From positions 1 to 62,793 of the IMG/VR virus record IMGVR_UViG_3300023096_000006: 62,793 nucleotides of DNA; one strand, written 5' to 3'. Made by a program: the position numbers and the translations under genes. Source of the DNA: a virus. Its lineage: Duplodnaviria; Caudoviricetes. Positions 1-49,949 of the stretch are shown here, one piece after another. Below the pieces are notes generated by a model that saw nothing but the letters and a program-made list of their open reading frames with translations, searched no databases and had not been told where the DNA came from. Positions within the stretch are counted from its first letter, which is position 1, and each line of letters starts with the position of its first letter.

Positions 1-109
1 TCCGATCTGGATTCCACTGTGGAGTTACTGGGGTCCAGTTGCCTGGGTCGTCCCGAAGTTCTTGTACTCAGGCCTTTCCGGTCCTCACCGCTGCTGGCCT
101 GGTACTTAC

Positions 110-138
110 ATCTTACGTCTCTCGAACCAGATATGCAA
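110..138 (-). promoter_or_regulatory. SigA-like promoter
   Basis: Minus strand TTGCAT-17 nt-TAAGAT, directly downstream of a hairpin. Confidence 0.6.
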
Positions 139-173
139 GAAGCCTCCGAACTTTTTCTGTTCAGAGGCTTCTT
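137..173 (-). terminator. Stem-loop, probable terminator
   Basis: AAGAAGCCTC(T/C)GAAC inverted repeat, 15-bp stem. Confidence 0.6.
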
Positions 174-282
174 AAGTCTAGTTCTAGAGCTTAGACATGC
201 CTCTTAAAGCCGGATACCCCATTCTGGGTTCCGCGCTTTGCGATGGCTGATGTCTTACTCATGCGTCTAGTGTACACCATTT

Positions 283-501
283 CTAAGTCAGTTGGTCCCT
301 GGTGTCGAGAACGATGAAAGCTCCCAGTTCGGTCAGCTTGGCTTCGTGCTGCTCTCCGTGGTGCTTGCAGTACGACAGCAACCCGTCTCTGAAGAAGTAG
401 TGCATGCTGGAGCGGTGCCCACACTGGGTACAGGCGACAAACTCATCAGGGGCTGGCACATGGACGGTTACCTCTTCCTCAGTTTCCAGCACATCATTCA
501 T
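283..501 (-). CDS. Small putative Zn-binding protein
   Basis: CTQC...CKHH motifs; preceded by the GCGATAGTA motif at 547-555. Confidence 0.65.
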   Translation of the reverse strand: MNDVLETEEEVTVHVPAPDEFVACTQCGHRSSMHYFFRDGLLSYCKHHGEQHEAKLTELGAFIVLDTRDQLT

Positions 502-561
502 CAGTCGGCTCCTCTACCACTGGGTCTTCCTCGTAGGGCTCACTTTTACTATCGCGTGAGC

Positions 562-723
562 CTAGAGAACTTCTACGCCAATGATGCGTCCATACGAATC
601 AATGTCCAAGATGACTTCCCTAGTGCCAAGGCTGATTTGCTTGACACTAGGGAAGTTTGTCTGCGCATGAAAGTAGTACGCGTCTACTTCCTGGTCCCAC
701 GTCGCTGTGAGTGCTTCAGGCAT
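562..723 (-). CDS. DUF2283-like small protein (53 aa, below the ORF-track cutoff)
   Basis: Translated by hand: MPEALTATWDQEVDAYYF...VILDIDSYGRIIGVEVL; start overlaps the upstream stop (TAATG). Confidence 0.7.
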   Translation of the reverse strand: MPEALTATWDQEVDAYYFHAQTNFPSVKQISLGTREVILDIDSYGRIIGVEVL

Positions 724-1937
724 TACCGGTTCGCCACCAATTCTTGTCCACCGTGGAAAGCTCGACCGGAGTCAATCTGCACTAGCTCCACGTAGAACTG
801 TCCATCGTCTCTGTATCGAATGACTGTCACGCCCTGCTGCCAGTTCTCCCAGTAGGTGGCCTTAGAGCCGTCTAGGTGGCGTGCCCCGTGAACAGAAGGC
901 ACCATACCGTCAACTCGGCAGAGACATCCGGGGTTGACGTTCATGGTACGAATCTTGCCAGCACGGTCGAAGATGGTCTTGGACTGTACTTCAAGTCGGT
1001 GGGAGTGCCCGAAGATGGTCGAAATGTGAGGCGTCTCGTTGGCGTACTGAGAGGCCGTAGAACCCTTAGCCACACTCTTGGTACCGTGGATGACTCTGAG
1101 GTCGTCACAAATCCAGTGAGCGCCTGCTGGATAGGCGTCTGTGTAGCCAGTGTCGAACTCGTCTAGTCCGATGAGGAACGGAAGACTCATGGCGGGCCAC
1201 TCGTCCGGGTACCCTGCTCGTCGTAGACCCATAGCGCTCTTGGCGTTAGCTTCCATGAAGCTCTGCATGCGCTTGTCGTGGTTTCCCTCAATCCACTGAA
1301 TGACGCCAGACGTTCGCGCACGTGTCTCAGCGGCGAATAGGCGTCCTCGTTCTAGTGAGGGCTGGGTAGTGCGAGCAAAGCGCTCTTCCTGAGCCCAGCG
1401 GCCTTGTTCTGTGAGGTCCAGGATGTCGCCAGCGATGATGGTCTGGTCAGGATTCTCCAGGCCTACAATCTGCTGGAAGAGGTCGATAGCTGCATCATCG
1501 TGGTAGGGAATCAAGTTCCCTGCGTTGTCCATGTCGAAGCCGATTTGAGTGTCGGCACCCACCACAGCCGTCTTGAACTTCGTCGCTCGTGGGGTTGGTG
1601 TAACGGGTCGGAGCTTGTAGACGGTAGCGGGCTTCTGGATGACGGGCCACTTGGGAAGCTCCTGGCCATCAACGAAATTCTTCTTCTTGACGTTGAGTAG
1701 CTTGTTCCAGTACCCACCGTTCGGACTCGACGTAACTCCGAAGGTGAAGGTAACTTCCTCAGGGTCGGTGCCCTTCTCAGCTAGCCATGCTCGCCAGTCG
1801 TCCTCACCCCAGGCCGTAGCCATCATGAGGCCTGCGGAAAGGACCATGCCGTCAGACGTGAAGACAATCTCCTCGTCAGCCTTGACAGCGGCTTCAGCTT
1901 TCGCCTGAGCGGCTGCTAGCTTGTCACTTAGACCCAT
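723..1937 (-). CDS. Calcineurin-like metallophosphoesterase
   Basis: DTQ, GDILD, GNHD, HG and GHSH motifs; start reassigned to MGLSDKL. Confidence 0.85.
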   Translation of the reverse strand: MGLSDKLAAAQAKAEAAVKADEEIVFTSDGMVLSAGLMMATAWGEDDWRAWLAEKGTDPEEVTFTFGVTSSPNGGYWNKLLNVKKKNFVDGQELPKWPVIQKPATVYKLRPVTPTPRATKFKTAVVGADTQIGFDMDNAGNLIPYHDDAAIDLFQQIVGLENPDQTIIAGDILDLTEQGRWAQEERFARTTQPSLERGRLFAAETRARTSGVIQWIEGNHDKRMQSFMEANAKSAMGLRRAGYPDEWPAMSLPFLIGLDEFDTGYTDAYPAGAHWICDDLRVIHGTKSVAKGSTASQYANETPHISTIFGHSHRLEVQSKTIFDRAGKIRTMNVNPGCLCRVDGMVPSVHGARHLDGSKATYWENWQQGVTVIRYRDDGQFYVELVQIDSGRAFHGGQELVANR

Positions 1938-2184
1938 GAACGTCTTCTTCCTTGATGGTGCCAGCCTTGACCGCTTCACGGAAAGGGATGAACGTGGCCT
2001 TATCGAACTTAGCCCCATTGCTACGAAGGAAATTCAGGAGAGTGTAGTTTCTCCAGTTCTCGCTCCGAAGCGCGGCCCAGACAGCTTTGCGGTCAGTCTC
2101 ATCGAGCGTCTTCAACCACTTCTCGATGTTGGACTCTTTCTTGGCGGTAGCCGCCTCTTGCAACTTCTCGGCAAGTGTAGACAC
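1924..2184 (-). CDS. Hypothetical protein
   Basis: 86-aa ORF with GGAG RBS, overlapping the phosphoesterase start. Confidence 0.7.
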   Translation of the reverse strand: MSTLAEKLQEAATAKKESNIEKWLKTLDETDRKAVWAALRSENWRNYTLLNFLRSNGAKFDKATFIPFREAVKAGTIKEEDVHGSK

Positions 2185-2228
2185 GTGCGTCTCCTAAGGT
2201 TTGGCTGGTGTCGTAGTCCAGCTTACCT

Positions 2229-2257
2229 CATGTACGCCTTTAAGGTTCCATTGTCAA
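2229..2257 (-). promoter_or_regulatory. Promoter, TTGACA-17-(GCG)TACATG class
   Basis: Perfect -35 box; shares the SCGTA -10 context with other copies. Confidence 0.5.
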
Positions 2258-2258
2258 G

Positions 2259-2310
2259 CAAAAAACCCCTGGCCTTCGGCCCGATTAGGGGCCTGACCAG
2301 GGGTTTCTTT
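2259..2310 (-). terminator. Intrinsic terminator ending the tRNA operon
   Basis: AAACCCCTGG...CCAGGGGTTT stem followed by a U-tract on the minus strand. Confidence 0.8.
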
Positions 2311-2311
2311 G

Positions 2312-2385
2312 TAGCGCAGACGGGATTCGAACCCGCAGCATCACTGGGTCTGAGCCAATGTGGTCGTCCTGTTGCCTACCGCGCC
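2312..2385 (-). tRNA. tRNA-Leu(CAG), short variable arm
   Basis: GGCGCGG/CTGCGCT acceptor, CT-CAG-AC loop, GCGGG TTCGAAT CCCGT T-arm. Confidence 0.8.
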
Positions 2386-2414
2386 ATATGAAGTTGTCAC
2401 AGAGAATCCATTTG

Positions 2415-2496
2415 TAGCCCTCACGGGACTCGAACCCGCACACCACGAAGGTACTAGTTCCTAAGACTAGCGCGTCTACCATTCCGCCAAAGAGCC
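2415..2496 (-). tRNA. tRNA-Leu(TAG)
   Basis: Canonical cloverleaf, long variable arm, CTAGT CT TAG GA ACTAG. Confidence 0.92.
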
Positions 2497-2497
2497 G

Positions 2498-2571
2498 TAG
2501 CGTAGACGGGATTCGAACCCGTATTCATCTTAGTATCTCGGACTAAGTGGTCTACCGTTGCCTACTACGCT
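2498..2571 (-). tRNA. tRNA-Leu(GAG), short variable arm
   Basis: AGCGTAG/CTACGCT acceptor, CTTAGT CC-GAG-AT ACTAAG, canonical T-arm. Confidence 0.75.
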
Positions 2572-2575
2572 ATGC

Positions 2576-2722
2576 AGAGAGTAACTATTGGTCAGTGTGG
2601 TTCCTACTACTGCCGTTCTTTACTTGTCTCGGGTCCTGCGGCCTCTCGAAAGAAACCACCCGTACCATTGAGACGTTCTTTACTTGGGGTCGTATTCTCC
2701 ACACCTCCGCAAGCTACTCTCT
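2576..2722 (-). ncRNA. Putative rod-shaped ncRNA with symmetric 11x11 bubble
   Basis: Nested stems AGAGAGTAGCT/AGTTACTCTCT, GGTGTGG/CCACACT, GTCTC/GAGAC and a TTCG-capped hairpin; CAAGTAAAGAACG occurs twice. Confidence 0.55.
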
Positions 2723-2825
2723 TCCGTGCCATTGCCCTCAGCCGGGGGGAGGAGTGTGCTCGGTTTCACGGTCTGCGCGCTTACCGCTCCTATGCACCTA
2801 CTTTCGGGCCGCTAAACCCTTTGCG

Positions 2826-2897
2826 TGGGAAAACGGGGAATCGAACCCCGGACTTCTGTGCTTCAAACAGACGCTTTACCGACTAAGCTATAATCCC
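2826..2897 (-). tRNA. tRNA-Phe(GAA)
   Basis: Cloverleaf with TCTGT TT-GAA-GC ACAGA; two U-U pairs in the acceptor stem. Confidence 0.85.
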
Positions 2898-2905
2898 AAA
2901 ATCCC

Positions 2906-2994
2906 GCACAGCCTGTCAGAGCCTCAGTGCAGGTTGTCTGGCGCGTACGGGCTATTCCAGACTCGCAATGTGTCCCTGACAGGACATCCCGTGC
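2906..2994 (-). ncRNA. Putative long hairpin ncRNA between tRNA-Tyr and tRNA-Phe
   Basis: GCAC/GTGC, CCTGTCAGGG/CTCTGACAGG and GTCTGG/CCAGAC nested stems. Confidence 0.45.
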
Positions 2995-3027
2995 CACCTG
3001 TTGAAGTACAGTGTAGCCAAACTTGAG

Positions 3028-3096
3028 TCCTGTAGGAGAGAATCGAACTCTCGTGCGGTCGATTTACAGTCGAGGCCAGCGCCACGCCACTACAGG
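3028..3096 (-). tRNA. Atypical tRNA-Tyr(GTA), 69 nt
   Basis: CCTGTAG/CTACAGG acceptor with A73, TCGA CT-GTA-AA TCGA, GAGAG TTCGATT CTCTC; reduced D-arm and no long V-arm. Confidence 0.65.
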
Positions 3097-3183
3097 GTAG
3101 TTTTGCCATCCGAATATCGCATGGATGGCACCGCGCCCGGACTGGACTTACCGGGTGGAAGGTTCATGACTTCTTCCAGCTTG

Positions 3184-3255
3184 TAGTGCGTACGGGATTC
3201 GAACCCGTGCTGTCCAGCTTGAAAGGCTAGAGTACTTCCTGTATACGAACGCACC
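3184..3255 (-). tRNA. tRNA-Glu(TTC)
   Basis: Cloverleaf with CTAGC CT-TTC-AA GCTGG. Confidence 0.88.
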
Positions 3256-3256
3256 G

Positions 3257-3327
3257 TAGCCCGTAGGGGAATCGAACCCCTGCTACAAGGCTGAGAACCT
3301 TGCGACCTACCATTAATCGAACGGGCC
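3257..3327 (-). tRNA. tRNA-Glu(CTC)
   Basis: Cloverleaf with CAAGG TT-CTC-AG CCTTG. Confidence 0.88.
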
Positions 3328-3348
3328 ATAATCTTCTATTCAGTTGTG

Positions 3349-3426
3349 TGGCGTCCAAGACGAGATTTGAACTCGCGTTCTCCACCTTGACAGGGTGGCG
3401 GGGACTCCTGACTCCCCCACAAGGAC
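3349..3426 (-). tRNA. tRNA-Asp(GTC), encoded CCA
   Basis: CCACC CT-GTC-AA GGTGG, G73-CCA; two U-U pairs in the acceptor stem. Confidence 0.88.
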
Positions 3427-3491
3427 ATAGGCTGGGTTATTCTTCCTCGTAGACGAACCTGCGTTCGCACCAGCATCACTACGATGTATCG

Positions 3492-3565
3492 GGTGATAGA
3501 CGGGACTCGAACCCGCACACATCTGCTCCACAGGCAGACCATCAGCCTTTGAAAGTACTATCACC
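3492..3565 (-). tRNA. tRNA-His(GTG)
   Basis: G-1:C73, TCTGC CT-GTG-GA GCAGA, canonical T-arm, irregular D-arm. Confidence 0.8.
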
Positions 3566-3609
3566 ATAGCGGGATTCGCCCTGTGGTGCACCACCTGACG
3601 TTTCCCTCG

Positions 3610-3681
3610 TCGGAATGGGGGGAATCGAACCCCCTCCTTCTCGGTCCCAAGCCGAGCGACCTCCCACTAGCCCACATTCCG
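3610..3681 (-). tRNA. tRNA-Pro(TGG)
   Basis: CGGAATG/CATTCCG with A73, CTCGG CT-TGG-GA CCGAG. Confidence 0.88.
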
Positions 3682-3685
3682 ATGT

Positions 3686-3755
3686 CCCCGATGCTGGGTC
3701 GCTACGCCCAGGTCTTCCCTCTCCCCGAGGGTGCACTGCTCTATGCTACATCGCG
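3686..3755 (-). pseudogene. Degenerate tRNA-like element (Pro GGG-like)
   Basis: CGCGATG/CATCGGG acceptor, D-like arm, CCCTC GGGGA GAGGG, CTGGG/CCCAG arm without TTCG. Confidence 0.45.
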
Positions 3756-3762
3756 GTTTAAT

Positions 3763-3829
3763 GACGACGACGCTATACACTTACGTCCAACGGCTTTCAC
3801 CGTACGGGAATCTAACCCGTGCTTCCGTC
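3763..3829 (-). ncRNA. Circularly permuted tRNA-like RNA (YrlA-type topology)
   Basis: GACGG-AAGC-[ACGGG TTAGATT CCCGT]-[ACGGT GAAA GCCGT]-TG-[GACG N11 CGTC]-G-TCGTC. Confidence 0.6.
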
Positions 3830-3832
3830 TCG

Positions 3833-3906
3833 TCGGGATAACAGGATTCGAACCTGCGACTTCACGCTCCCAAAGCGCGCGCTCTACCAAGCTGAGCTAT
3901 ATCCCG
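3833..3906 (-). tRNA. tRNA-Pro(TGG), second copy
   Basis: Canonical cloverleaf CGGGATA/TATCCCG with TT-TGG-GA loop. Confidence 0.92.
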
Positions 3907-3928
3907 ATATGGATTCTCTGTGGAGTTA

Positions 3929-4321
3929 TCAATCTGCGTGCCTAGCTAGGTAGGCGATTGCTAGAAGCAGTCTGTCCGGGTCATCCTTGAAAAGTCCAAG
4001 CCCCATGTTACATGAGGAGCAAAGCACTTCGCGTAGCTTTCCCGTCGTGTGATTGTGGTCCCAATGACTTTTCAAGAGAGTAACACTGTCGCCGCAAAGA
4101 GCACACTTACCGTTCTGCTTGTTTAGTTGTTCTAGCTTTTCCTCGGGTGAAGAATCGTATCTCGTTCGGTAGTGATACCGTGCGTTAGACGCCTGCACCT
4201 TGTCTCGGTTCTTAGCCCGCCACTCTCGCTTGTATTCGTTGTAACACGGTACGCAGTAAGAGTAACTGGACTTGAAATCCTCAACTGGCTTCTCTTGCAA
4301 ACACTTGGCACACGTTCTCAT
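3929..4321 (-). CDS. Endonuclease VII-family HNH endonuclease
   Basis: CxxC pairs, DHNH..GKLR.VLCSSCNMGLG.FKDD signature. Confidence 0.9.
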   Translation of the reverse strand: MRTCAKCLQEKPVEDFKSSYSYCVPCYNEYKREWRAKNRDKVQASNARYHYRTRYDSSPEEKLEQLNKQNGKCALCGDSVTLLKSHWDHNHTTGKLREVLCSSCNMGLGLFKDDPDRLLLAIAYLARHAD

Positions 4322-4526
4322 GTACTAAGTCTACTAGGGAAACTAGAGAAAAAGCTCTGTGGAGTTGTAGGTACAAATAAAGCCTCAGACTTTTCGAGTC
4401 CAAGGCTTAGAGTAGAGCGAATTTGCGCACTCTAAGCCAACCTGGGGTCTTCCAGGTGTAGCTCATAGTCAAACTTGCTCATGTCTTAAACCTTACATCA
4501 TGTAAACGCCTTGTGGCGCTTACTCG

Positions 4527-4600
4527 TTACGGGGGAGGGAATCGAACCCTCAGTCGCGCAGGATATGAGCCTGGCCAGTTACCGTTACTTGCACCCCGTG
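4527..4600 (-). tRNA. tRNA-Met(CAT), initiator-like
   Basis: C1xA72 mismatch, CAGG CT-CAT-AT CCTG, GAGGG TTCGATT CCCTC. Confidence 0.75.
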
Positions 4601-4662
4601 CCATTGTTTTCAGTTGTACTCATTTTTACGTCTCAGAATCTGATTTGTCAAACTGAGTTTCG

Positions 4663-4733
4663 CACCCCGTCGAGGAATCGAACCCCGGTCTGGCGGGTTG
4701 GAGCCGCACATGTTACCACTACACCAACGAGAT
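4663..4733 (-). tRNA. tRNA-Trp(CCA)
   Basis: Cloverleaf with GCGG CT-CCA-AC CCGC and G73. Confidence 0.88.
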
Positions 4734-4746
4734 ATGTGTTGAATTA

Positions 4747-4765
4747 TCTAGTGTACACCATTTCT
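4747..4765. repeat. 19-bp direct repeat shared with 266-284
   Basis: TCTAGTGTACACCATTTCT is identical at both sites; contains TACACT on the minus strand. Confidence 0.8.
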
Positions 4766-4773
4766 GATGTCCG

Positions 4774-4848
4774 TGCCCTAGGTGGGAATCGAACCCACAA
4801 ACCCCAAGGTTTGAGCTTGGTCCATATACCGAATTCTGGTACTAGGGC
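4774..4848 (-). tRNA. tRNA-Leu(CAA), short variable arm
   Basis: GCCCTAG/CTAGGGC with A73, CCAAG CT-CAA-AC CTTGG, 5-nt variable loop. Confidence 0.85.
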
Positions 4849-4977
4849 AAAAAGGCCAGCCTTCGTCCCTGCGAAAGCTACCAACCAAGAAAGGAGCTTG
4901 AAGGCTGGCCATGAGAGTGGTTGTAAAAGGAACACCAGATAGGTGGACCACTCTCAGTCTGTGAAGTTGTTAGTTAC

Positions 4978-5007
4978 ATCATACGCCCTAAGTGGCGAAA
5001 GTGTCAA
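4978..5007 (-). promoter_or_regulatory. SigA-like promoter of the tRNA operon
   Basis: TTGACA-18-TATGAT followed by boxA-like ACAACTTCACA. Confidence 0.75.
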
Positions 5008-5170
5008 GCAATTCTTGATTCTCACTCACCGTATGAGTGCAGGAAGGTCCGTTGAACCCGTGTCCACACACAATGCATTTCTTGTCTGAGACAGAGAAAT
5101 CATGTGAGCCGCGAAGGCGAACCCTCTTGGCGATTTGTGCTTGCTGTCCGCGCGAGTAATGGTTCTTCAC
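4988..5170 (-). CDS. Hypothetical protein
   Basis: 60-aa ORF with H..CxxC..C. Confidence 0.5.
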   Translation of the reverse strand: MKNHYSRGQQAQIAKRVRLRGSHDFSVSDKKCIVCGHGFNGPSCTHTVSENQELLDTFAT

Positions 5171-5186
5171 TCGTTCTTGCCAATCG

Positions 5187-5411
5187 TCATAGTCCTGTAT
5201 ACGGCTCTACTTCTGATTCGTCAAGAAACTCATCGAACGAATTGTGCGTTGTCTGCCAAACAAATGTACCCGCGTCGTGGTTAAAGATAGCCTCAACCGT
5301 GGGATTACATGGACATGTGAATTTGTGCTTGTGCTCGATAACGTCGTTCTCAGGCCACACCTCACACGTATTGTCGGAGGTCCAGTTTTGCAACCATTTG
5401 GCTTTCTGCAC
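5187..5411 (-). CDS. Hypothetical protein
   Basis: GGAGG RBS; H..CPC.P..H motif. Confidence 0.6.
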   Translation of the reverse strand: MQKAKWLQNWTSDNTCEVWPENDVIEHKHKFTCPCNPTVEAIFNHDAGTFVWQTTHNSFDEFLDESEVEPYTGL

Positions 5412-5441
5412 TACTGGACCTCCAACATGAAACGTAGGAGA

Positions 5442-6287
5442 CTAGCTTACACTGGCATCCCGACGCGTGGCGGTGTTGGCCCGCTTGTTCTTCTTACGGA
5501 AGCTGCGGAGAGTCTTCTTGCTGAAGTTCTCCTTGAGCATCGGCTGGAGAAGAACGAACTCCGCAGGCGACGTGTAGTCAGCCCAGTCCCGCATGGGGAT
5601 GTTGGCCGAATCCAACTCTTCGATGACATCCAGCATGCGGCGCTCGTTCTCGGGCATCCAATCCATGCTCTCGTTGTAGAGGTCACCCAAGTCCTGCTCC
5701 AGGTACCCGTCCGTGTAGCCTTCGTCACCACGGTCAGCGAAGAACACATTGCTGTCTTCTTCACGGAGCCCAAAGGTGTCACCGGTACGGCGCGTGGCCG
5801 TGTCGTGACGGTTGGTGTAGAAGTCAGTGTCGTCATCGTCCCACCAGTGCTTGCTGGTGTAGCCGTAGGGGTTCTTGTCCGACTTGGGACCATAGAACCC
5901 GCCAGGCGTGTTCAGACGGCACAACGTGGCCCAGATGGAGTTGAGAGCCGTGTGGTACTTGTGGTTCCAGGAGTACCGCTCCGACGTGACCTTGAACTTC
6001 TCGTAGTCGATGGCGAGAGCGGCCTGCTTGATGCCCTCAGCGTACGCCTCACGGGTCGTGTAGAACCGGTAGTTGTAGTCCATCTGAGGAGTGTCGTGGA
6101 TGGTGGGGTTGAACGAACCCGGAACCATGTACGTGTCCATGAAGTAGCGAAGGTGCTCTTCCACACGACCACGAACCTGAAGCTCGTACTCACCATTGTT
6201 CGTCCACGCAAGAACGTCGGCGTCACCGGCGACCTTGGCCGGGACAAGGGCGGGCATGAGGAGCCCGAAGTCAAAGAATGCCCACAT
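5442..6287 (-). CDS. Hypothetical phage protein
   Basis: GAAAGGA RBS before MWAFF, own promoter, strong codon bias. Confidence 0.75.
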   Translation of the reverse strand: MWAFFDFGLLMPALVPAKVAGDADVLAWTNNGEYELQVRGRVEEHLRYFMDTYMVPGSFNPTIHDTPQMDYNYRFYTTREAYAEGIKQAALAIDYEKFKVTSERYSWNHKYHTALNSIWATLCRLNTPGGFYGPKSDKNPYGYTSKHWWDDDDTDFYTNRHDTATRRTGDTFGLREEDSNVFFADRGDEGYTDGYLEQDLGDLYNESMDWMPENERRMLDVIEELDSANIPMRDWADYTSPAEFVLLQPMLKENFSKKTLRSFRKKNKRANTATRRDASVS

Positions 6288-6328
6288 GATGAATCCTTTC
6301 GTTGGTAGCTGCTGTAGCTGATACCTCA

Positions 6329-6357
6329 AAGATACAGGGTTAGTTGACGGATGTCAA
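6329..6357 (-). promoter_or_regulatory. SigA-like promoter
   Basis: TTGACA-17-TATCTT. Confidence 0.7.
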
Positions 6358-6669
6358 GCCCTCTCTAAGAACCCGGTCAAGCTCTTCGCGATTCAACGCC
6401 AAGTCGTGGTGCACACTGATGGTGAGGTCATCCGCCAACCCAAGTTCGAAAAGGCTCAACTCCAAACACTCAAACTTCCCGGCCTCGTCCCGCACGTAAA
6501 GATACAGGATTTCATCCTCCCAGTCGTCTTCGTACTCTACGACCTCAAAATCATCCACGTAGCCAACATAGGTGTGAAGGATGTCGTCAATATCGGTCCA
6601 GGAGACTTGCATGTACTGGCCAATCAAGGCAGTAGTCAGGTCGCGGTGAAGCAAGTCTGTCTTTGTCAT
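6340..6669 (-). CDS. Hypothetical acidic protein
   Basis: ORF from MTKTDLL, just downstream of a promoter. Confidence 0.6.
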   Translation of the reverse strand: MTKTDLLHRDLTTALIGQYMQVSWTDIDDILHTYVGYVDDFEVVEYEDDWEDEILYLYVRDEAGKFECLELSLFELGLADDLTISVHHDLALNREELDRVLREGLTSVN

Positions 6670-6675
6670 ACTCCA

Positions 6676-6723
6676 TGTATACGGCGAAGGCCCGCCCTGT
6701 GTCAAGCACTGTGGGCGGGCCTT
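6676..6723 (-). promoter_or_regulatory. Hairpin overlapping a TTGACA-18-TATACA promoter
   Basis: AAGGCCCGCCC/GGGCGGGCCTT stem with the -35 box in its loop. Confidence 0.55.
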
Positions 6724-6746
6724 CTGTTGCCTAGGGTGTCGGGACG

Positions 6747-6938
6747 CTAGGCAGTCTCTGGGGTTTCAGCTTCTGTCTGGTCAGCAAACAGCATGTAGCG
6801 GGCGAGCTTATCAGCTTCCCCCTCAGCGACAAACACGATGGTACCGCCGACGTTGAAGATGTAGCCCTTTACATCGTCCTGCGTGTGATGGTACACAAGG
6901 ACTGCGGACTTGGTTGTGGTTTGAACTTGGATGGTCAT
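6747..6938 (-). CDS. Hypothetical protein
   Basis: 63-aa ORF tightly packed after the upstream gene. Confidence 0.6.
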   Translation of the reverse strand: MTIQVQTTTKSAVLVYHHTQDDVKGYIFNVGGTIVFVAEGEADKLARYMLFADQTEAETPETA

Positions 6939-6941
6939 GAC

Positions 6942-8108
6942 TTACTCGACAATCTGTGACAACTTGTAAGGGTTCACTGCTGGCTGTCCAGCGGTGTTGC
7001 CTTCATCCCAGATGCGGGCCTTCAGGCTGTTGAACGTGGCGCTAGGGATAGCTCCACCGATGCGCAAGAGCTTGTCCACCCGGTCTTCGGAGATTTCCGG
7101 GTCGTTGGCTGTCTGCGTAATGGCGTTCATCACGACGTACATGTTCAGGTCGTTCTCTGGATTTTCCAGAACCTCGTTGACACCACGGCGCTGAGTGACA
7201 GGAACGTTGTACGTGTCGTAGATTTCACTCACGACTTCACCCGTGTTCGAACCGAGCTTCAGAGAGGTAAGTCCCTGGATGAGGTCAAACTGGCTCTCCA
7301 TGCCCCCCAGAACGCTGTCTACGGCGTTCTGTGCCCAGGCGTACACATCCTGCTCGTCGTGCTCTCCACGGCGGCTGAAGACGTTGCTTACAGCGTCCAG
7401 AGTGGTCGTGGCACCGTTCGTGCACCACCAGCGGAACAAGTAGGTTTCAATCTTCGTCTGGCTCTTACCGATGAGAGAGTTCGTCAGGTGAATACCACCG
7501 GCCCACTCGTCAGACTCACCCGATGGAACATCGCTCATGCCGCCGCCCGAAATGTTGCGAGCGGCCTCGGGAATGATGAAACGTACATCCGTGCGAGCCA
7601 GGGAGTGATTGAACTTGTAGTCCGCATAGATGTTCGCTGAGCCGTAACGCTCTACGATTCCCTGCACTACCTCTCCCACCAACAGAGAGTTGGAGAAAGG
7701 GTTGATGGTCGGGCGTGTGAATGCCGCTACTGCCTGGTTGTCTCCCGTGGCGAGCATGTTGTAGGCGTTGTCACCCATGCCACCGGAGTACCAGTAGTTC
7801 AAGTGCTGCTCCAGAAGATTGTTCGGGAGCTTGGCTGCGTACTTGCCAGGAAGGCCGAAGGCTGCGCCAGCCTGTAGAGCGGCGTCCTTTGTCAGTGGAC
7901 GTTCTACACCGTTGACACGAATCACGGCGTCTACAGGTACCGTACCGTCCTTGTCCTCCAGACCGATGGCCCATGAAGGCTCAAAGGCAAAGAGAATCTT
8001 GTCGTCGGAAGAAATGAATGTCTGTTCCAGAGGCTCTGTCGAAGAAAGTCGAGCCTGAACCTGCTCCAGCGTAAGGAGCTTGCTCTTCATGGTGTCAAAA
8101 GCTACCAC
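6942..8108 (-). CDS. DUF932/DUF945-like protein
   Basis: L.NS..G...R.WCTNG motif; GAGGAGG RBS. Confidence 0.6.
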   Translation of the reverse strand: MVAFDTMKSKLLTLEQVQARLSSTEPLEQTFISSDDKILFAFEPSWAIGLEDKDGTVPVDAVIRVNGVERPLTKDAALQAGAAFGLPGKYAAKLPNNLLEQHLNYWYSGGMGDNAYNMLATGDNQAVAAFTRPTINPFSNSLLVGEVVQGIVERYGSANIYADYKFNHSLARTDVRFIIPEAARNISGGGMSDVPSGESDEWAGGIHLTNSLIGKSQTKIETYLFRWWCTNGATTTLDAVSNVFSRRGEHDEQDVYAWAQNAVDSVLGGMESQFDLIQGLTSLKLGSNTGEVVSEIYDTYNVPVTQRRGVNEVLENPENDLNMYVVMNAITQTANDPEISEDRVDKLLRIGGAIPSATFNSLKARIWDEGNTAGQPAVNPYKLSQIVE

Positions 8109-8131
8109 TGTAGACCTCCTCAGGTCACATG

Positions 8132-8160
8132 CTTATACGGCACAAGAACAAGAAAGTCAA
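8132..8160 (-). promoter_or_regulatory. Promoter TTGACT-17-(CCG)TATAAG
   Basis: Intergenic, correct spacing. Confidence 0.55.
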
Positions 8161-8161
8161 C

Positions 8162-9415
8162 TTACAGGTCAACTCGGTTGCCTGCACCTGCTGTGGGAAG
8201 TAGTTCCTTGAACTCTTCTTCTTCAGCCTCAGAGATTTCCTGCTCCTCAGGAGTTGTGACTGCTTGGAGTGCAAGGTCATTGTCCTTGACGTACTGAGCG
8301 GCGTGCGCAATGACGGCATCCCGCCACTCAGGGTGAGCGTCAGCGGCTGCATTCAGAGCCTTGTCACTACGGATATTGGCACGCTGATGTCCGGTCTTCG
8401 TGCGCTCCATCCACTCAGGAGCAAGACCCTTGTCCTCCACCTTGTGGAAGTAGTAGTAGCCCTGGGAGTACATGACTTCCTTGGCGGCAAGAAGAATTTG
8501 CATGGCTGTCCAGAAGTTGTCGAAGCCCCTACCGAAGCGCACACGCACAACTGCCTTGCGGAACGGGCGTGCCACCTTGTTCTTGGTGACCTTGACTTCC
8601 ACGTTGGTAGCACCAGGAGTTTCTACTTCTTCCCCAGAGAGAGGGTCAATGCTCTTCTCCTTGATGTTTCCTACCTGCTTGTACTCCAGGCGCACGGACT
8701 CGTAGAACTTCAGAGCCACCCCACCGGGAGTACTCATCTTCGGCCCCAGGTGAGCGGGACGACGGCCAGACATGTCCAGAACCTCACGAAGGTGGTTCAC
8801 GAAGATGTTCAAGGTCTGGTGCCTGTAGAGAAGAGGAACCAGCTTCTGACCCAGGTCGGACATGAGCTTTGCCTGCACGGCAGGAAGGCTCTTACCAATC
8901 TCGGCAGAGGCCTTAGCAGAAGGCATCATGGAAGCTACGGAGTCCCAGATGACCATGCGGATGCGGCCAGTTTCGATTAGCTCTACGGCGATGTTCGCGC
9001 CGTCTTCCAGAGTGTCAGGCTGAACCAGCAAGAAGGAGTCGTCGTCAATGTCCAGACCCAGGCTCTTGCAATAGTCCTGGTCAATGGTGGCCTCGTAGTC
9101 CAAGTACAGAATCTTGTCTGTAGGGAGAATCTTGAAGACTGTTCCGTCAGTACCGGCAACTTCTCCACCCCCGGACAGGATGACCTTCTGCAAGGCTGCT
9201 GCGGTCTGGAGAGCGGTCGTGGTCTTACCGGAGGAGGGGGGTCCCGCAAGCTCCACGAGACGGCCTAGCGGTAGTCCTCCACCGATGATGTGGTCTAGAG
9301 CGATGTTTCCAGTCGTGATGAAGTAAGAGGGCTGCGCAATCTTAGAAACTGCGCCGATACCCGTCTTGAACTTCTTCTGGACCTGGAGCAACTTTGCGTC
9401 AAAGTCGTCGGCCAT
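8162..9415 (-). CDS. recA: RecA-like recombinase
   Basis: GGGLPLGR, GPPSSGKTT, WDSVA, TPGGVALKFY and KNKV motifs. Confidence 0.95.
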   Translation of the reverse strand: MADDFDAKLLQVQKKFKTGIGAVSKIAQPSYFITTGNIALDHIIGGGLPLGRLVELAGPPSSGKTTTALQTAAALQKVILSGGGEVAGTDGTVFKILPTDKILYLDYEATIDQDYCKSLGLDIDDDSFLLVQPDTLEDGANIAVELIETGRIRMVIWDSVASMMPSAKASAEIGKSLPAVQAKLMSDLGQKLVPLLYRHQTLNIFVNHLREVLDMSGRRPAHLGPKMSTPGGVALKFYESVRLEYKQVGNIKEKSIDPLSGEEVETPGATNVEVKVTKNKVARPFRKAVVRVRFGRGFDNFWTAMQILLAAKEVMYSQGYYYFHKVEDKGLAPEWMERTKTGHQRANIRSDKALNAAADAHPEWRDAVIAHAAQYVKDNDLALQAVTTPEEQEISEAEEEEFKELLPTAGAGNRVDL

Positions 9416-9425
9416 TAGAGTTCTC

Positions 9426-10019
9426 CTAGATGTACGCGGGCTGTACGCCCGTAAGCGTTGTGTACTCGTCCTGGTGACGGACAAGCCAATCGTTGATGAG
9501 GAAAGCCATAACGTAGTCGGTCATGGACTTTTCAAGAGGGTTCGTGTTCTTCTTCAGAACCTTGGTTCCCTCGGGGAGAGAGTCGATGTACTGCTGCACA
9601 AGGTCGGGAGGGTTGTATCCCAACTGTGCGGCGTGCTCTAGAGCTTTGGCGTCTCGGTACAGCAAGCTTTCCGCTTTGCTGAGGCCCTTAGGGGCTCGTG
9701 CTACACCCTCGTAGTCTTTCATCCACGTGCTGGGATTGACGAAGTAAAACGAGAAATCTTGCAAGGCGAGCATGAGCATGCCCTGTAGGCGGGTCACTGG
9801 CTTTGTCATAGCTTGTGAAGAAACCCCGTAAGGTACGTCCTCAACAAGAATGTGAAGCGTGTGACCCCGAAGTCGGTTGCATACCTCAAAGAGCGTGTTG
9901 ACCCACTCGACGGGTGACCTACCGGCAGAGTCGCCCTGCCAGCGGACCTGACCGTCCTCGTCCCGCAAGACTGCTGCTGAGAACTTAGAGGCCAGGTCCA
10001 CTGACAGGTAGAAAATCAC
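9426..10019 (-). CDS. RuvC-like Holliday junction resolvase
   Basis: N-terminal LSVDLA, ILVED and PSTW.K pattern; next to RecA. Confidence 0.65.
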   Translation of the reverse strand: MIFYLSVDLASKFSAAVLRDEDGQVRWQGDSAGRSPVEWVNTLFEVCNRLRGHTLHILVEDVPYGVSSQAMTKPVTRLQGMLMLALQDFSFYFVNPSTWMKDYEGVARAPKGLSKAESLLYRDAKALEHAAQLGYNPPDLVQQYIDSLPEGTKVLKKNTNPLEKSMTDYVMAFLINDWLVRHQDEYTTLTGVQPAYI

Positions 10020-10022
10020 GGC

Positions 10023-11003
10023 TTAGATGCCGTTCAGGAGAGCGTCAATGTCGTCATCCGAAGAAGCTCCACCGGAAGAGGCCTCAGGCTGACCGGCGTC
10101 GATACCTAGGTCTGCCAGGCTTGTGGCAGGCTCAGGAGTAGCGATGGCCCAGCCGTCTGCATCCTTGTCCTGAGTAGAGCCACTGTTCAGGAGGTCGTCA
10201 AGACCTTCCTGAAGAGAAGCACCAGAGCCGATGTTGCTCATAGCCGCGTCCGTGGCAGAGATTGTCTGCACACCCGTAGCGATGGCCCACGCCTCGTTGA
10301 TGGCCTTGATGTCGAACTCAATCTGCTTCTCGCTCTTCTTGGAGCCACAGAAGATAGACAGGTCAGGAGCCAGGTTTTCCTTGGCCATGAGAGCCTGCAC
10401 GTACTTCTTGCGCTCGTCGTTGGCGAGCCATGCACCATCCATGGAAATGGAAATGTCGTAGCCGTGGAACGCAGGGTTCTCGGCCTTGAAGATGACATCG
10501 TGCTTGCGGAGGTCGAAGCCCTGCTGCTTGAACTCGTAGAGCTTGGAGAACACCTTGTCAGTGAAGGAGTAGACAAGAGTCTGAGCACCAAACGGGTCCT
10601 TGACTTCCAAGCTGTTTGGCTTGGTGTCGTACTTCAGAAGGTGAAGCGCGAATCGGCGCTGAGGAGCGTAGAAGCGGTCGGAGCGCTTAGCTTCTGCACA
10701 CAGAGGGCAGTGCTCAGGGTCGGACCCATCTTCGGAAAGGACTCCGTAGTCGCCCAAGCAGATAGGGCGGGAAACGAACTCGTATACGTAGTCCTCGTAC
10801 TGCGTGCCGTCGCGGCGAGACTTGGTTTCCTTCTGAGGAAGACCGCCTACCAGCTTTGGCTTTCGCAGGTTGTGAACGAACTCAGCTACCGGTGCCTCTA
10901 GGACAGCTACACGGGCGATTTCGCCCTTCTTGTCTAGCTTGAACTTGGGGTAGTCGTAATCGTTCTTCTTGATGTTCTCTTCGGTAAATTCTACGCGAGG
11001 CAT
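10023..11003 (-). CDS. Single-stranded DNA-binding protein (gp32-like)
   Basis: Acidic tail (DDDIDALLNGI), CPLC site, replication context. Confidence 0.65.
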   Translation of the reverse strand: MPRVEFTEENIKKNDYDYPKFKLDKKGEIARVAVLEAPVAEFVHNLRKPKLVGGLPQKETKSRRDGTQYEDYVYEFVSRPICLGDYGVLSEDGSDPEHCPLCAEAKRSDRFYAPQRRFALHLLKYDTKPNSLEVKDPFGAQTLVYSFTDKVFSKLYEFKQQGFDLRKHDVIFKAENPAFHGYDISISMDGAWLANDERKKYVQALMAKENLAPDLSIFCGSKKSEKQIEFDIKAINEAWAIATGVQTISATDAAMSNIGSGASLQEGLDDLLNSGSTQDKDADGWAIATPEPATSLADLGIDAGQPEASSGGASSDDDIDALLNGI

Positions 11004-11088
11004 TTTCGTTCCTATCAGGTGTTTTTAATAGTGGGAGCCTAGTAGCGGCTCAAGTACAAGCCTACTAGGTTTCATAGGCGCGTGGCGC

Positions 11089-11604
11089 TTATGTTTGTAC
11101 CTCTTGCGAGGTCACAAATTGCTGAATTCGAAGCATCTGAAGTACGTCCTCACGTAGCTTCTCCAGTCCCCAATAGCACTGGCTGATGACATCAAGAGTT
11201 TCAGATGCTTGGGACTCTGCGTTCTTCATACGGTGAGCTTCCCGCTTCTCCTGCAAGGAAGCAAGAGACGCTGCGGAATTCTTCTCAGCGGCACTGACGA
11301 ATTCTTGTACACGGGTTGTACGGGCAGAGTCCATGGCCTCGTCATATCGCACGGTGGCATCGAACTCTGCCTGCTCACGCATTCTCATGATGCGTCCCTT
11401 AGCCTGGCGTGCCTTGGACTGTAGTTCTTCTACCCGGTCCAGACGAACACGAACTCTCTGAAGCATGTCCAAGGCGGCAGACTGTCCTAGCTCGTAAGCC
11501 GGTAGCTGTACCTTGCCCTTGGGGTCTTCAGCCTCGCCGTGACGTAGCTCTAGCGCCTCGCTGGCCCATTCCAGTAGGACTTTCTCTAGGCTTCCATCAC
11601 TCAT
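11089..11604 (-). CDS. Coiled-coil protein, possibly a recombination mediator
   Basis: All-helical ORF between the polymerase and SSB genes. Confidence 0.55.
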   Translation of the reverse strand: MSDGSLEKVLLEWASEALELRHGEAEDPKGKVQLPAYELGQSAALDMLQRVRVRLDRVEELQSKARQAKGRIMRMREQAEFDATVRYDEAMDSARTTRVQEFVSAAEKNSAASLASLQEKREAHRMKNAESQASETLDVISQCYWGLEKLREDVLQMLRIQQFVTSQEVQT

Positions 11605-11899
11605 TCTGACCCACAATCTTTTCCGTGAGAGCGTTGCGCTTGTTCACAACCTGAGAAAGCTGTTCGGCAACGGCAGAGCCGGGTCCGTAAATGTGAGGGA
11701 AGTGCTGCACCTTGTAAAGCAGAATGAAGGATTCAGCAATGAGTTGCAAGAGACGGTACTTATCCGTCAGCTTCATCTTGGTAATGACCTTATCTGAGTG
11801 CTCTGCGAAGTGAAGAGCCAAATCGGCCTCGTCAACTTCCACATCCTGCTTCACCCAAATGCCCTGGATTTCCTCAGAAGCCCCTAGTCGTACATGCAT
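11597..11899 (-). CDS. Hypothetical protein
   Basis: 100-aa ORF in operon. Confidence 0.6.
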   Translation of the reverse strand: MHVRLGASEEIQGIWVKQDVEVDEADLALHFAEHSDKVITKMKLTDKYRLLQLIAESFILLYKVQHFPHIYGPGSAVAEQLSQVVNKRNALTEKIVGQNE

Positions 11900-11907
11900 A
11901 GTCTCTT

Positions 11908-24598: not shown

Positions 24599-25366
24599 CT
24601 ACGCCCCAAGCACGCGATATACCAAAGCTCCGTGGATGTCAAGAAGTGCCTCAGTATGAAGTCGGCGCACGCTCGTCAGGGTGTCGTTGACTTCTTCGGC
24701 AATCTCTGGTAGCTCCAGGCCGATGTAGTACTTCAACGCGATGATGACCTGTTGTTTCTCTGAGAGTAGGTCTACAGCCCCGACAAGGGCTTCTCTCAAT
24801 GATGCTTCGAGAGCGGATGACTCAACGCTTCCCGATGTCTGAATCATGTCCCCGATAGTGGAGACGTTATCTGCATTGTAGTTGTGACCTACCACGGAGT
24901 CTTCCAGGTAAACCGGTCGAGAGTTGACTAGCTTGATGACCTTCTGTACCCGCGCGACGGGGAGATTGGCTACGTCTGCAAGTTCTTGTTCTGACTTTTC
25001 CGAAGAGCCATAGCCATGACTCTGAAGAATCTTGTAGTCCTTGCGGACTAGCTCATGAACGTGGTCCAGCTTTCTCAAGCTGCTGAGCATTTGACCGTTG
25101 ATGCTCTTTCTAGCGAAGACAGAGAAGAACTGACCTGAAGCAATGGATTCCTCAGAGTACCCATTCTCTTCCCCGTACTCCCGGTACCGCAGTGCCGCTC
25201 GAATGAGGCCGTGATATGCCTGCGATAGCAAATCATCTTGGTCAACGCCGAAGTCAGCCTTGCGCTTCAACCTACTCCACTGTCGGTGAAATAGGTACTG
25301 AGCGAGCGCATAGTTGTTCTTCACCAATGCGTACTGCTCAGGTGTCAGCTTCTCTGTCTTCTTCAC
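24599..25366 (-). CDS. Sigma-70 family, FliA/WhiG-like sigma factor
   Basis: DDLLSQAYHGLIRAA, F..FA...I.G....LRKLD, region 4 LSEKQQVIIALKYY..L.L.EIA. Confidence 0.85.
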   Translation of the reverse strand: MKKTEKLTPEQYALVKNNYALAQYLFHRQWSRLKRKADFGVDQDDLLSQAYHGLIRAALRYREYGEENGYSEESIASGQFFSVFARKSINGQMLSSLRKLDHVHELVRKDYKILQSHGYGSSEKSEQELADVANLPVARVQKVIKLVNSRPVYLEDSVVGHNYNADNVSTIGDMIQTSGSVESSALEASLREALVGAVDLLSEKQQVIIALKYYIGLELPEIAEEVNDTLTSVRRLHTEALLDIHGALVYRVLGA

Positions 25367-49676: not shown

Positions 49677-49949
49677 TCAGGCGGCGACAGCCTCTGAATG
49701 GTAAGAGCTAATGATGTTGTCTACCTTGGCAGGGTCATAGCCTGTGAAGTGCTCTCCTTTGAAGTAAACAACGGGCGCAGCCTTGTAGCCCCACGTTCCC
49801 TGAATGAGAGTTAGTGCGTCTGGAACCTCTGACGCATCAATCTCCTGGTACTCGACGCCCTTCTCCTTCAGCTTGCGCTTGACAGCATTACACTGTACGC
49901 AACCCGGTAGGGAGAAGATGGTGGGCTTGTCAATTTCGATATCTGGCAT
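49677..49949 (-). CDS. nrdH: NrdH-like glutaredoxin
   Basis: CVQC, GYKAAPVV and F.GY.P motifs. Confidence 0.9.
   Translation of the reverse strand: MPDIEIDKPTIFSLPGCVQCNAVKRKLKEKGVEYQEIDASEVPDALTLIQGTWGYKAAPVVYFKGEHFTGYDPAKVDNIISSYHSEAVAA

Follow-up and report, generated by a model that had tools for sequence, protein, structure and literature searches.

Within the transfer RNA (tRNA) gene array of an actinophage-like siphovirus, represented by the IMG/VR virus record IMGVR_UViG_3300023096_000006 (62,793 bases, all of them analysed here as the window; estimated to be ~50% complete), the minus strand of positions 2576–2722 folds as a 147-nt rod-like hairpin RNA in which two identical 11-nt strands face each other across an 11 × 11 internal loop. 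The order of letters in this loop fits two G-bulge (sarcin–ricin) modules set back to back, so that the loop probably forms a rigid, two-fold symmetric docking surface rather than an open bubble of the kind found in 6S RNA. At somewhat less than even confidence, we favour the explanation that the rod belongs to an RNA released by tRNA processing and carries a symmetric docking site for a protein or another RNA. We lean this way because of the stability of the fold, its preference for one strand, the register of the loop, its place in a tRNA array with a promoter-like site upstream, a look-alike in a second phage contig, and the presence of structured RNAs in related arrays. In kind, the rod would be a phage tRNA-island RNA like GOLLD and ROOL, with a loop apparently built from a known three-dimensional (3D) module. 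The structure is striking, but it rests on one sequence and one uncertain look-alike.

Fold, strand and repeat

RNAfold returned the same structure for the rod as minimum free energy (MFE) and as centroid fold, at −54.2 kcal/mol, whereas 200 dinucleotide shuffles averaged −36.3 (s.d. 3.9) and none of the 200 was as stable (z = −4.62). The plus strand of the same interval reached −42.7 (z = −1.91), with 7 of 200 shuffles as good. The minus strand folds better because of five G–U pairs, and the difference therefore indicates the minus strand, on which all 14 tRNA genes of the array also lie. The rod is built from an 11-bp terminal stem, the outer stem AGAGAGUAGCU/AGUUACUCUCU (2712–2722 with 2576–2586, its 3′ end lying 4 nt upstream of tRNA-Leu(gag)), and a further stem in which GGUGUGG (2699–2705) pairs with CCACACU (2594–2600). 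A 4 × 4 all-purine loop, AGAA/GGAA, adjoins this last stem, and short irregular pairs come between it and the 11 × 11 loop. The inner part (2626–2674) begins with the stem GUCUC/GAGAC (2670–2674 with 2626–2630) and ends in an irregular apical hairpin with a 9-bp stem, three G–U pairs and a UUCG loop at 2647–2650. A sequence-only reading of this DNA had drawn such a rod by hand, and RNAfold reproduced each element that it named on the minus strand of 2576–2722; the 13-nt direct repeat and two-fold loop symmetry that it described also hold, in coordinates and in the identity of the facing strands, so that the observation of a symmetric rod is confirmed.

The symmetry stems from a 13-nt direct repeat, CAAGTAAAGAACG on the minus strand, at 2614–2626 and 2674–2686. 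Within it, the exact 11-mer AAGTAAAGAAC occupies 2615–2625 and 2675–2685, and these two copies are the loop strands: AAGUAAAGAAC at 2675–2685 is the 5′ strand (unpaired in the MFE and centroid structures), and the identical AAGUAAAGAAC at 2615–2625 is the 3′ strand (likewise unpaired in the fold). There is no third exact copy in the 62.8-kb window, and allowing up to one mismatch gave 3 matches (0.9 expected). Sites complementary to the loop were no more frequent elsewhere in the window than chance predicts (one 10/11 site, at 49762). A direct repeat of at least 13 nt within 100 nt arose in 3.5% of 200 windows simulated with a first-order Markov model; the real window holds three, the other two inside long open reading frames (ORFs). 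Symmetric loops of 11 nt or more formed by a direct repeat, with 4 bp or more on the inner side and 2 bp or more on the outer side, were found in 5 of 771 simulated windows. The sequences that follow the two copies are unrelated, and the repeat is therefore not a recent tandem duplication. On its anatomy, we ruled out a CRISPR-like array, type III antitoxin repeats and a transposon with a target-site duplication, because only 13 of each 60 nt repeat, there are two copies only, and the 11-mer recurs in the look-alike described below.

The repeat could also be read as protein, as part of a 41-codon ORF (2607–2732, minus strand) in which it appears in frame as SKER twice. A GAGGG 2 nt before the AUG and a 60-nt period that is a multiple of three speak for such a gene, which we nevertheless regard as scarcely credible: no homologue was found among proteins of 22–72 residues, the reading frame is buried in the −54 kcal/mol hairpin, the spacing of the ribosome-binding site is poor, and a short ORF is expected by chance in 253 nt, the length of the spacer in which the rod lies.

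The internal loop as a predicted pair of G-bulge modules

Each loop strand runs A1 A2 G3 U4 A5 A6 A7 G8 A9 A10 C11, with AGUA at positions 2–5, GAA at positions 8–10 and purines at 10 of the 11 positions in both strands. With the copies antiparallel, the AGUA of either strand faces the GAA of the other, twice. The nearest-neighbour fold leaves the 11 × 11 loop open; its sequence fits two G-bulge modules, which predicts a closed loop. The sarcin–ricin or G-bulge motif consists of a bulged G in a cis sugar-edge/Hoogsteen (cSH) contact with the next U, a trans Watson–Crick/Hoogsteen (tWH) U–A pair and a trans Hoogsteen/sugar-edge (tHS) A–G pair (PMC3273805); AGUA is given as a typical word of the motif (PMC13085918). 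The rod loop resembles this motif in that AGUA opposite GAA permits the bulged G, the tWH U–A pair and the tHS A–G pair, and resembles loop E in that purine-rich symmetric loop E motifs are known (PMC3273805). It differs from a sarcin–ricin motif in consisting of two modules back to back, in exact two-fold symmetry and joined by A–A pairs, a tandem symmetric arrangement that we did not find among the open-access papers listed.

Threading pairs 2–10′, 4–9′ and 5–8′ together with their mirror image uses all 11 + 11 nucleotides consistently. The complete predicted order would be 1–11′, 2–10′, a bulged G3, 4–9′, 5–8′, 6–7′, 7–6′, 8–5′, 9–4′, a bulged G3′, 10–2′ and 11–1′, in which A–A pairs 6–7′ and 7–6′ would join the two modules across the two-fold axis and A–C pairs 1–11′ and 11–1′ would close the loop ends. 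Only 4 of the 3,960 orderings of the loop's eleven letters allow the exact AGUA/GAA register, a count made after the sequence had been seen. From this register we infer non-canonical pairing, and with it a loop that works like a tandem, two-fold symmetric G-bulge platform, which falls short of proof of a sarcin–ricin motif.

The prediction of a closed loop bears directly on the first function offered by the sequence-only reading, namely that the rod is a 6S/Ms1-like decoy whose loop mimics an open promoter and traps the host RNA polymerase holoenzyme. The overall shape, a rod-like RNA with a central internal loop, is indeed that of 6S and Ms1, and the phage encodes a sigma-like protein with Sigma70_r4 domains (24599–25366). 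However, a 6S bubble must be open, whereas the loop of the rod is predicted to be closed and stacked, and the 6S comparison is unsupported. The loop strands are identical, purine-rich and predicted to be non-canonically paired, the RNA is shorter (147 nt; 6S RNA has ~180–200 nt), no Rfam model of any family matched the spacer at E ≤ 10, and relatives that share the sigma-like gene region, such as Microbacterium phage Magritte, lack the rod. We consider a polymerase decoy highly improbable. More generally, the models for 6S/Ms1, Y RNA, GOLLD, tRNA and transfer-messenger RNA (tmRNA) were all run, and the rod is not a member of any of these families. The other function proposed in that reading, a symmetric site at which a dimeric partner would bind, agrees with our results, and it is the one that we prefer.

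Genomic context and a possible route of release

The array comprises 14 tRNA genes (2311–4848, minus strand), with an Endonuclease VII gene inside it (3929–4321). The rod forms the 3′ 147 nt of a 253-nt non-tRNA spacer (2572–2824, minus strand), the presumed primary excised RNA, which is flanked immediately upstream by tRNA-Phe(gaa) (2825–2897, minus strand; no encoded CCA) and immediately downstream by tRNA-Leu(gag) (2497–2571, minus strand), where a putative RNase P site would set the 3′ end of the spacer RNA. The first tRNA is preceded by a sigma-70-like promoter match, TTGACA-18-TATGAT (4978–5007, minus strand; 11 of 12 positions), a match to consensus only. The record ends 2.3 kb past the array, and its long ORFs lie nearly all on the minus strand (siphovirus capsid, tail, DnaB, primase, ThyX, the sigma-like protein, PolA and RecA). 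The spacer contains no tRNA or tmRNA by ARAGORN or Rfam (a cmscan of 2480–2920 at E ≤ 10 gave 9 matches, none in the spacer; a gathering-threshold scan of 1–12000 gave tRNAs only), and has no significant similarity to the 14 tRNAs of the array (all E > 3), which ruled out a tRNA-derived origin of the rod.

Among isolates, Microbacterium phage Magritte comes closest (PolA 47% identical over 84% of its length); it is syntenic with the window through the replication genes and the tRNA array. Syntenic arrays also occur in two relatives identified through RecA (contigs G023 and G024) and in the Microbacterium jumbo phages A3Wally and Cece. The order of the tRNAs (Leu-caa, Trp, ..., Pro, His, Asp, Glu-ctc, Glu-ttc, Tyr, Phe, Leu...) is kept between the window (2311–4848), Magritte (L263), G023 (L266) and G024 (L267), and partly in Cece (L260); the non-tRNA inserts between those tRNAs vary in place, size and sequence.

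In the explanation that we favour, the 253-nt spacer would be co-transcribed with the phage tRNA array and cut out by the enzymes that make tRNA ends: RNase P on the tRNA-Leu(gag) side, and RNase Z or exonucleases on the tRNA-Phe side. Trimming of the unstructured 5′ ~100 nt would then leave the structured 3′ domain as a rod of ~150 nt with an 11-bp terminal helix. The G-bulge modules would serve as rigid recognition surfaces, and the closed symmetric loop could dock a dimeric protein or a second RNA. A precedent may exist in the small stable RNAs of the T4 tRNA cluster (species 1 and 2), which we take to be non-tRNA species, co-transcribed and co-processed with tRNAs and of unknown function; the likeness is a non-tRNA RNA among phage tRNAs, the difference that T4 belongs to another phage group.

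The same position could instead call for a hairpin that acts only in cis and is then degraded, with no role in trans: a substrate for RNase III, itself dimeric and two-fold symmetric, or a block to exonucleases that keeps the tRNAs folding independently. Such a processing or insulating hairpin would be in keeping with the more than 20 stacked base pairs of the rod, broken by purine loops only, with its position 4 nt from the next tRNA, with strong hairpins in the spacers of related arrays (for example, A3Wally L155:3667–3766, z = −5.96), with a 114-nt hairpin upstream of tRNA-Leu(gag) in Magritte, and with the location of the look-alike in the leader region of a T7-like phage, T7-type phages using RNase III sites in leader-type regions. 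Yet two identical 11-nt loop strands are needless for processing, the hairpin in Magritte does not reach significance (z = −1.28, 17 of 200 shuffles), most tRNA junctions of the window's array have no such hairpin, and the maturation of tRNA arrays proceeds through RNase P, Z and E with no involvement of RNase III. We therefore hold a purely cis-acting hairpin to be unlikely, though it deserves to be kept in view.

A GOLLD-like piece in the spacer and structured RNAs of related arrays

The 5′ end of the spacer carries a word, AAGGGUUUAGCGGCCCG (2805–2821, minus strand, with similarity continuing to ~2777), that matches 16 of 17 positions at L266:15565–15581 in the syntenic array of G023, with looser similarity over ~45 nt. 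The first 17–45 nt of the spacer thus match a core piece of a GOLLD RNA, the G023 site lying inside a match to RF02032 that scores 229.7 bits (gathering score, 150). The printed alignment places the word at model positions ~240–262, in the conserved 3′ region of that GOLLD. The GOLLD of G023 is complete (L266:15301–15733), with an embedded tRNA-like gene (anticodon tca). In A3Wally, a 246-nt spacer between two tRNA-Asp genes matched AAGGGUUUAGCGGCCCG as an exact 15-mer, and its local alignment with the window (34 columns, score 38) scored above all 200 shuffles. Scans of viral contigs for the word with short flanks returned the G023 contig only, besides chance matches (1 true match of 2; 1 of 6). 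We take the word as probably homologous because the same 14-mer stands in non-tRNA spacers of three syntenic arrays, and read the spacer as apparently carrying a short GOLLD-type piece at its 5′ end; nothing further is concluded from the word, and no part of the GOLLD alignment corresponds to the rod itself.

The phage RNAs GOLLD and ROOL, whose function is unknown, form RNA-only cages and often lie near tRNA islands (PMC12286853); GOLLD has been described inside a 32-tRNA cluster with an HNH endonuclease in mycobacteria (PMC6582537). The spacer resembles them in being a phage non-coding RNA among tRNA genes, and so lies in a tRNA island as they do; it differs from GOLLD in length (253 nt versus more than 400–800 nt), in having no embedded tRNA and in matching no GOLLD model. 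Taken as a whole, it may descend, in reduced and lineage-specific form, from the GOLLD-type RNAs that related phages carry in their tRNA arrays.

The 246-nt spacer RNA of A3Wally (L155:4533–4778) recurs between two tRNA-Asp genes in Big4 (L261:301–547), Zooman (L262:301–545) and Cece (L260:3001–3246), is 79–96% identical among 5 records, and occupies the place of GOLLD in G023. RNAalifold on 4 records gave 74 pairs, 12 of them with compensatory changes; neither Rfam as a whole (E ≤ 10) nor the GOLLD model matched the RNA, which is annotated as a hypothetical protein in two records. It shares with the window's spacer a syntenic tRNA array, a similar size and the 14-mer AAGGGUUUAGCGGC, but it is multi-branched rather than a rod, has no AGUA..GAA pair, and follows tRNA-Asp where the spacer follows tRNA-Phe. 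The syntenic arrays of Microbacterium-type phages thus exchange a full GOLLD, a 246-nt structured RNA and the rod-bearing spacer at similar places, an indication that array RNAs of widely differing size may form one related family.

A GOLLD-like fragment next to a rod could equally be what remains of a decayed GOLLD-type RNA or other insert, with hairpin and repeat as functionless leftovers. Just 17–45 nt of GOLLD-like sequence are left at the 5′ end, the spacers vary widely from one syntenic array to the next, none of the related records examined has the rod, and the 5′ 102 nt of the spacer are less structured than their shuffles (z = +2.07), all as expected of debris. Decay, however, does not yield a hairpin with z −4.6 and a perfectly symmetric loop (compare the 5 of 771 simulations above), the loop threads as two known 3D modules, and recent tandem duplication is excluded by the unrelated flanks. 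Evolutionary debris is in our view a doubtful explanation, about on a par with the processing hairpin.

Two further stretches of the window touch on GOLLD. The 150-nt gap between two tRNA-Pro genes (3682–3831, minus strand; fold z = −2.01) contains a T-arm-like CGGGUUAGAUUCCCG, uncalled by tRNA finders, and ACGUAAGUGUAUAGCG, which resembles the GOLLD-like word weakly (14 of 16, E = 1.7); the gap may be a pseudo-tRNA or a second remnant of GOLLD type. Directly behind tRNA-Trp, 24 nt (4644–4667, minus strand) that overlap a promoter-like TTGACA hexamer share 87.5% identity with part of the 5′ half of the G023 GOLLD region (E = 0.003).

A look-alike in a second phage

Pairs of the exact 11-mer at 35–65-nt spacing occurred at 14 loci in the viral contigs, of which 13 were AT-rich coding or tandem repeats. 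The remaining locus (L004, in the 14,993-base contig G001) is the single match that is neither a tandem nor a coding repeat, and it has the same stem–loop–stem–hairpin layout as the rod. Its helix sequences differ from those of the rod, the interval between the copies is 47 nt (49 nt in the window), the inner stem has 7 bp with one bulge, and an outer stem of five positions, with one mismatch by hand pairing, is paired at four of the five positions in the 85-nt fold. A look-alike was required to have different flanks and an inner stem of at least 4 bp. With the relaxed pair AAGTANNGAAC, in which the central dinucleotide is free, the viral contigs gave 104 stretches (143 instances), and only one, at this same place (L167), qualified. 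At least 116 metagenome stretches held the 11-mer pair, and the best 40 of 284 instances, ranked by flanking complementarity, added no further case; the single match in the prokaryote genomes was a coding repeat. Contig G001 contains no GOLLD or ROOL, the ROOL search having been run without a positive control.

The pair in G001 also lends itself to a reading at the level of DNA, in which direct repeats 60 bp apart bind a DNA-binding protein, as iterons or operators do, and the hairpin is incidental. The look-alike repeats, 17 nt each (2972–2988 and 3030–3046, a 58-bp spacing), lie in a 1.4-kb non-coding, repeat-rich region beside an integrase gene (L152:2832–4259), which also holds 11-nt-spaced GGTAAC-type repeats and several families of 12–27 nt. 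In the window, by contrast, the site is inside a tRNA array taken to be transcribed, the G–U pairs make the fold strand-specific, the motif is nowhere else in the 62.8 kb, and in each of the two instances the repeats have helices to either side. Protein-binding sites in the DNA are, on this balance, very unlikely.

Were the look-alike a true counterpart, the loop could be a new compact RNA device: G-bulge modules in a perfect two-fold tandem, each strand reading AAGUAAAGAAC, shared in its geometry by two unrelated phages, binding a homodimeric host or phage protein or pairing two RNA copies, and carried here by a miniaturised descendant of the GOLLD nanocage. This is a bold proposal that we judge unlikely as it stands. 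Phage tRNA islands often carry RNAs of unknown function, such as GOLLD and ROOL, whose structures have been solved only recently. To these the window adds a rod of 147 nt, small enough to be readily studied and unusual only in its symmetric loop, which appears to be built from a 3D module that is well understood; should the loop be a docking site, its partner would be easier to identify than that of an 800-nt nanocage RNA, and should the tandem-device reading be true, it would give a handle on the role of tRNA-island RNAs during infection. If the rod is debris or a mere processing hairpin, the finding is an ordinary one.

Relatives and points against the favoured explanation

The rod was looked for in about 30 related phage records. 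The AGUA..GAA pair pattern had no match in Magritte, in any of the four records A3Wally, Cece, Big4 and Zooman, or at five loci of the RecA relatives, and 20 contigs that share the phosphoesterase gene (723–2018, ~50% amino acid identity) had neither the array nor the motif. Paired near-matches at three loci (L020, L026 and L028) proved to be gene junctions. A blastn search of 2300–3100 against 50,697 phage records gave tRNA matches only, and a search for near relatives with a 22-mer of the tRNA-Phe 3′ end gave no match. The rod appears, then, to be lineage-specific. The sequence-only reading had named lack of conservation of the repeat in homologues among the outcomes that would speak against it, and the repeat is absent from all the related phages examined, so that on this count it is partly contradicted by its own standard.

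These absences weigh against the explanation that we favour, as do several other results. No rod homologue turned up in the relatives examined, and there is therefore no covariation. Motif-pair scans of viral contigs, metagenomes and prokaryote genomes gave repeats only, the look-alike excepted, and the look-alike itself has a weak fold (−13.6 kcal/mol for 85 nt) in a contig that belongs to an unrelated T7-like phage with an integrase and no tRNAs, and for which no relatives of its own were found. As to the fold, the 99-nt core (2601–2699) alone is not unusually stable (z = −0.87, 43 of 200 shuffles), the outer side of the 11 × 11 loop is closed by just two Watson–Crick pairs, the rod ranks 21st rather than first among 1,278 minus-strand windows by GC-corrected MFE, and the whole 253-nt spacer has z = −1.31, with 23 of 200 shuffles as stable. 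As to the loop, the classical sarcin–ricin signature ends with a cis Watson–Crick/Watson–Crick (cWW) pair after the sheared pair (trans Hoogsteen/Hoogsteen (tHH) first: ...tHH-cSH-tWH-tHS-cWW; PMC3854523); in the rod, A6–A7′ and A7–A6′ stand in that place. As to GOLLD, the score of the alignment between the window and G023 was reached by 10 of 200 shuffles, the GOLLD model had no match at E ≤ 10 in the spacer or the whole window (the G023 positive control scoring as above) nor any in A3Wally, Cece, Magritte or G024, and neither an nhmmer profile nor a covariance model of the Microbacterium array RNA found the window or the G023 GOLLD.

The relatives raise one more alternative, that the rod is a Y-RNA-like partner of a phage Ro (Rsr) protein encoded off the contig. 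Ro-domain (TROVE) genes are present in 3 of 5 related records, 3–11 kb downstream of the tRNA array; none is in the 62.8-kb window, which is ~50% of a genome and stops shortly past the array, so that such a gene could lie outside it. Y RNAs are, moreover, stems closed by their own 5′ and 3′ ends. Set against this, neither Y_RNA nor YrlA matched the spacer region at E ≤ 10 or positions 1–5400 at E ≤ 5, and the YrlA-like RNAs directly upstream of the Ro gene in Magritte contain a tRNA-like module that the rod lacks. A role as a Y RNA thus seems very improbable, about as much so as binding sites in the DNA.

In Magritte (L263:38400–40702), the gene for the Ro-like protein is preceded by two YrlA-like RNAs scoring 36.6 and 24.6 bits, below the gathering score, one of which overlaps an annotated tRNA-Arg(tct), and several repeated units with GGCUGA...GUUAUC stand upstream of the Ro gene.

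Other features of the window and related arrays

One hypothetical-protein coding sequence in A3Wally (gene 131, L155:5966–6142) overlaps 80 nt that share 95% identity with tRNA-Leu(cag) of the window and are probably an unannotated tRNA. In the window, the most stable minus-strand region by GC-corrected MFE (z = −4.8) lies at 28–272 and includes a long, perfect, terminator-like hairpin, GAAGCCUCUGAAC...GUUCGGAGGCUUC, downstream of the phosphoesterase gene.

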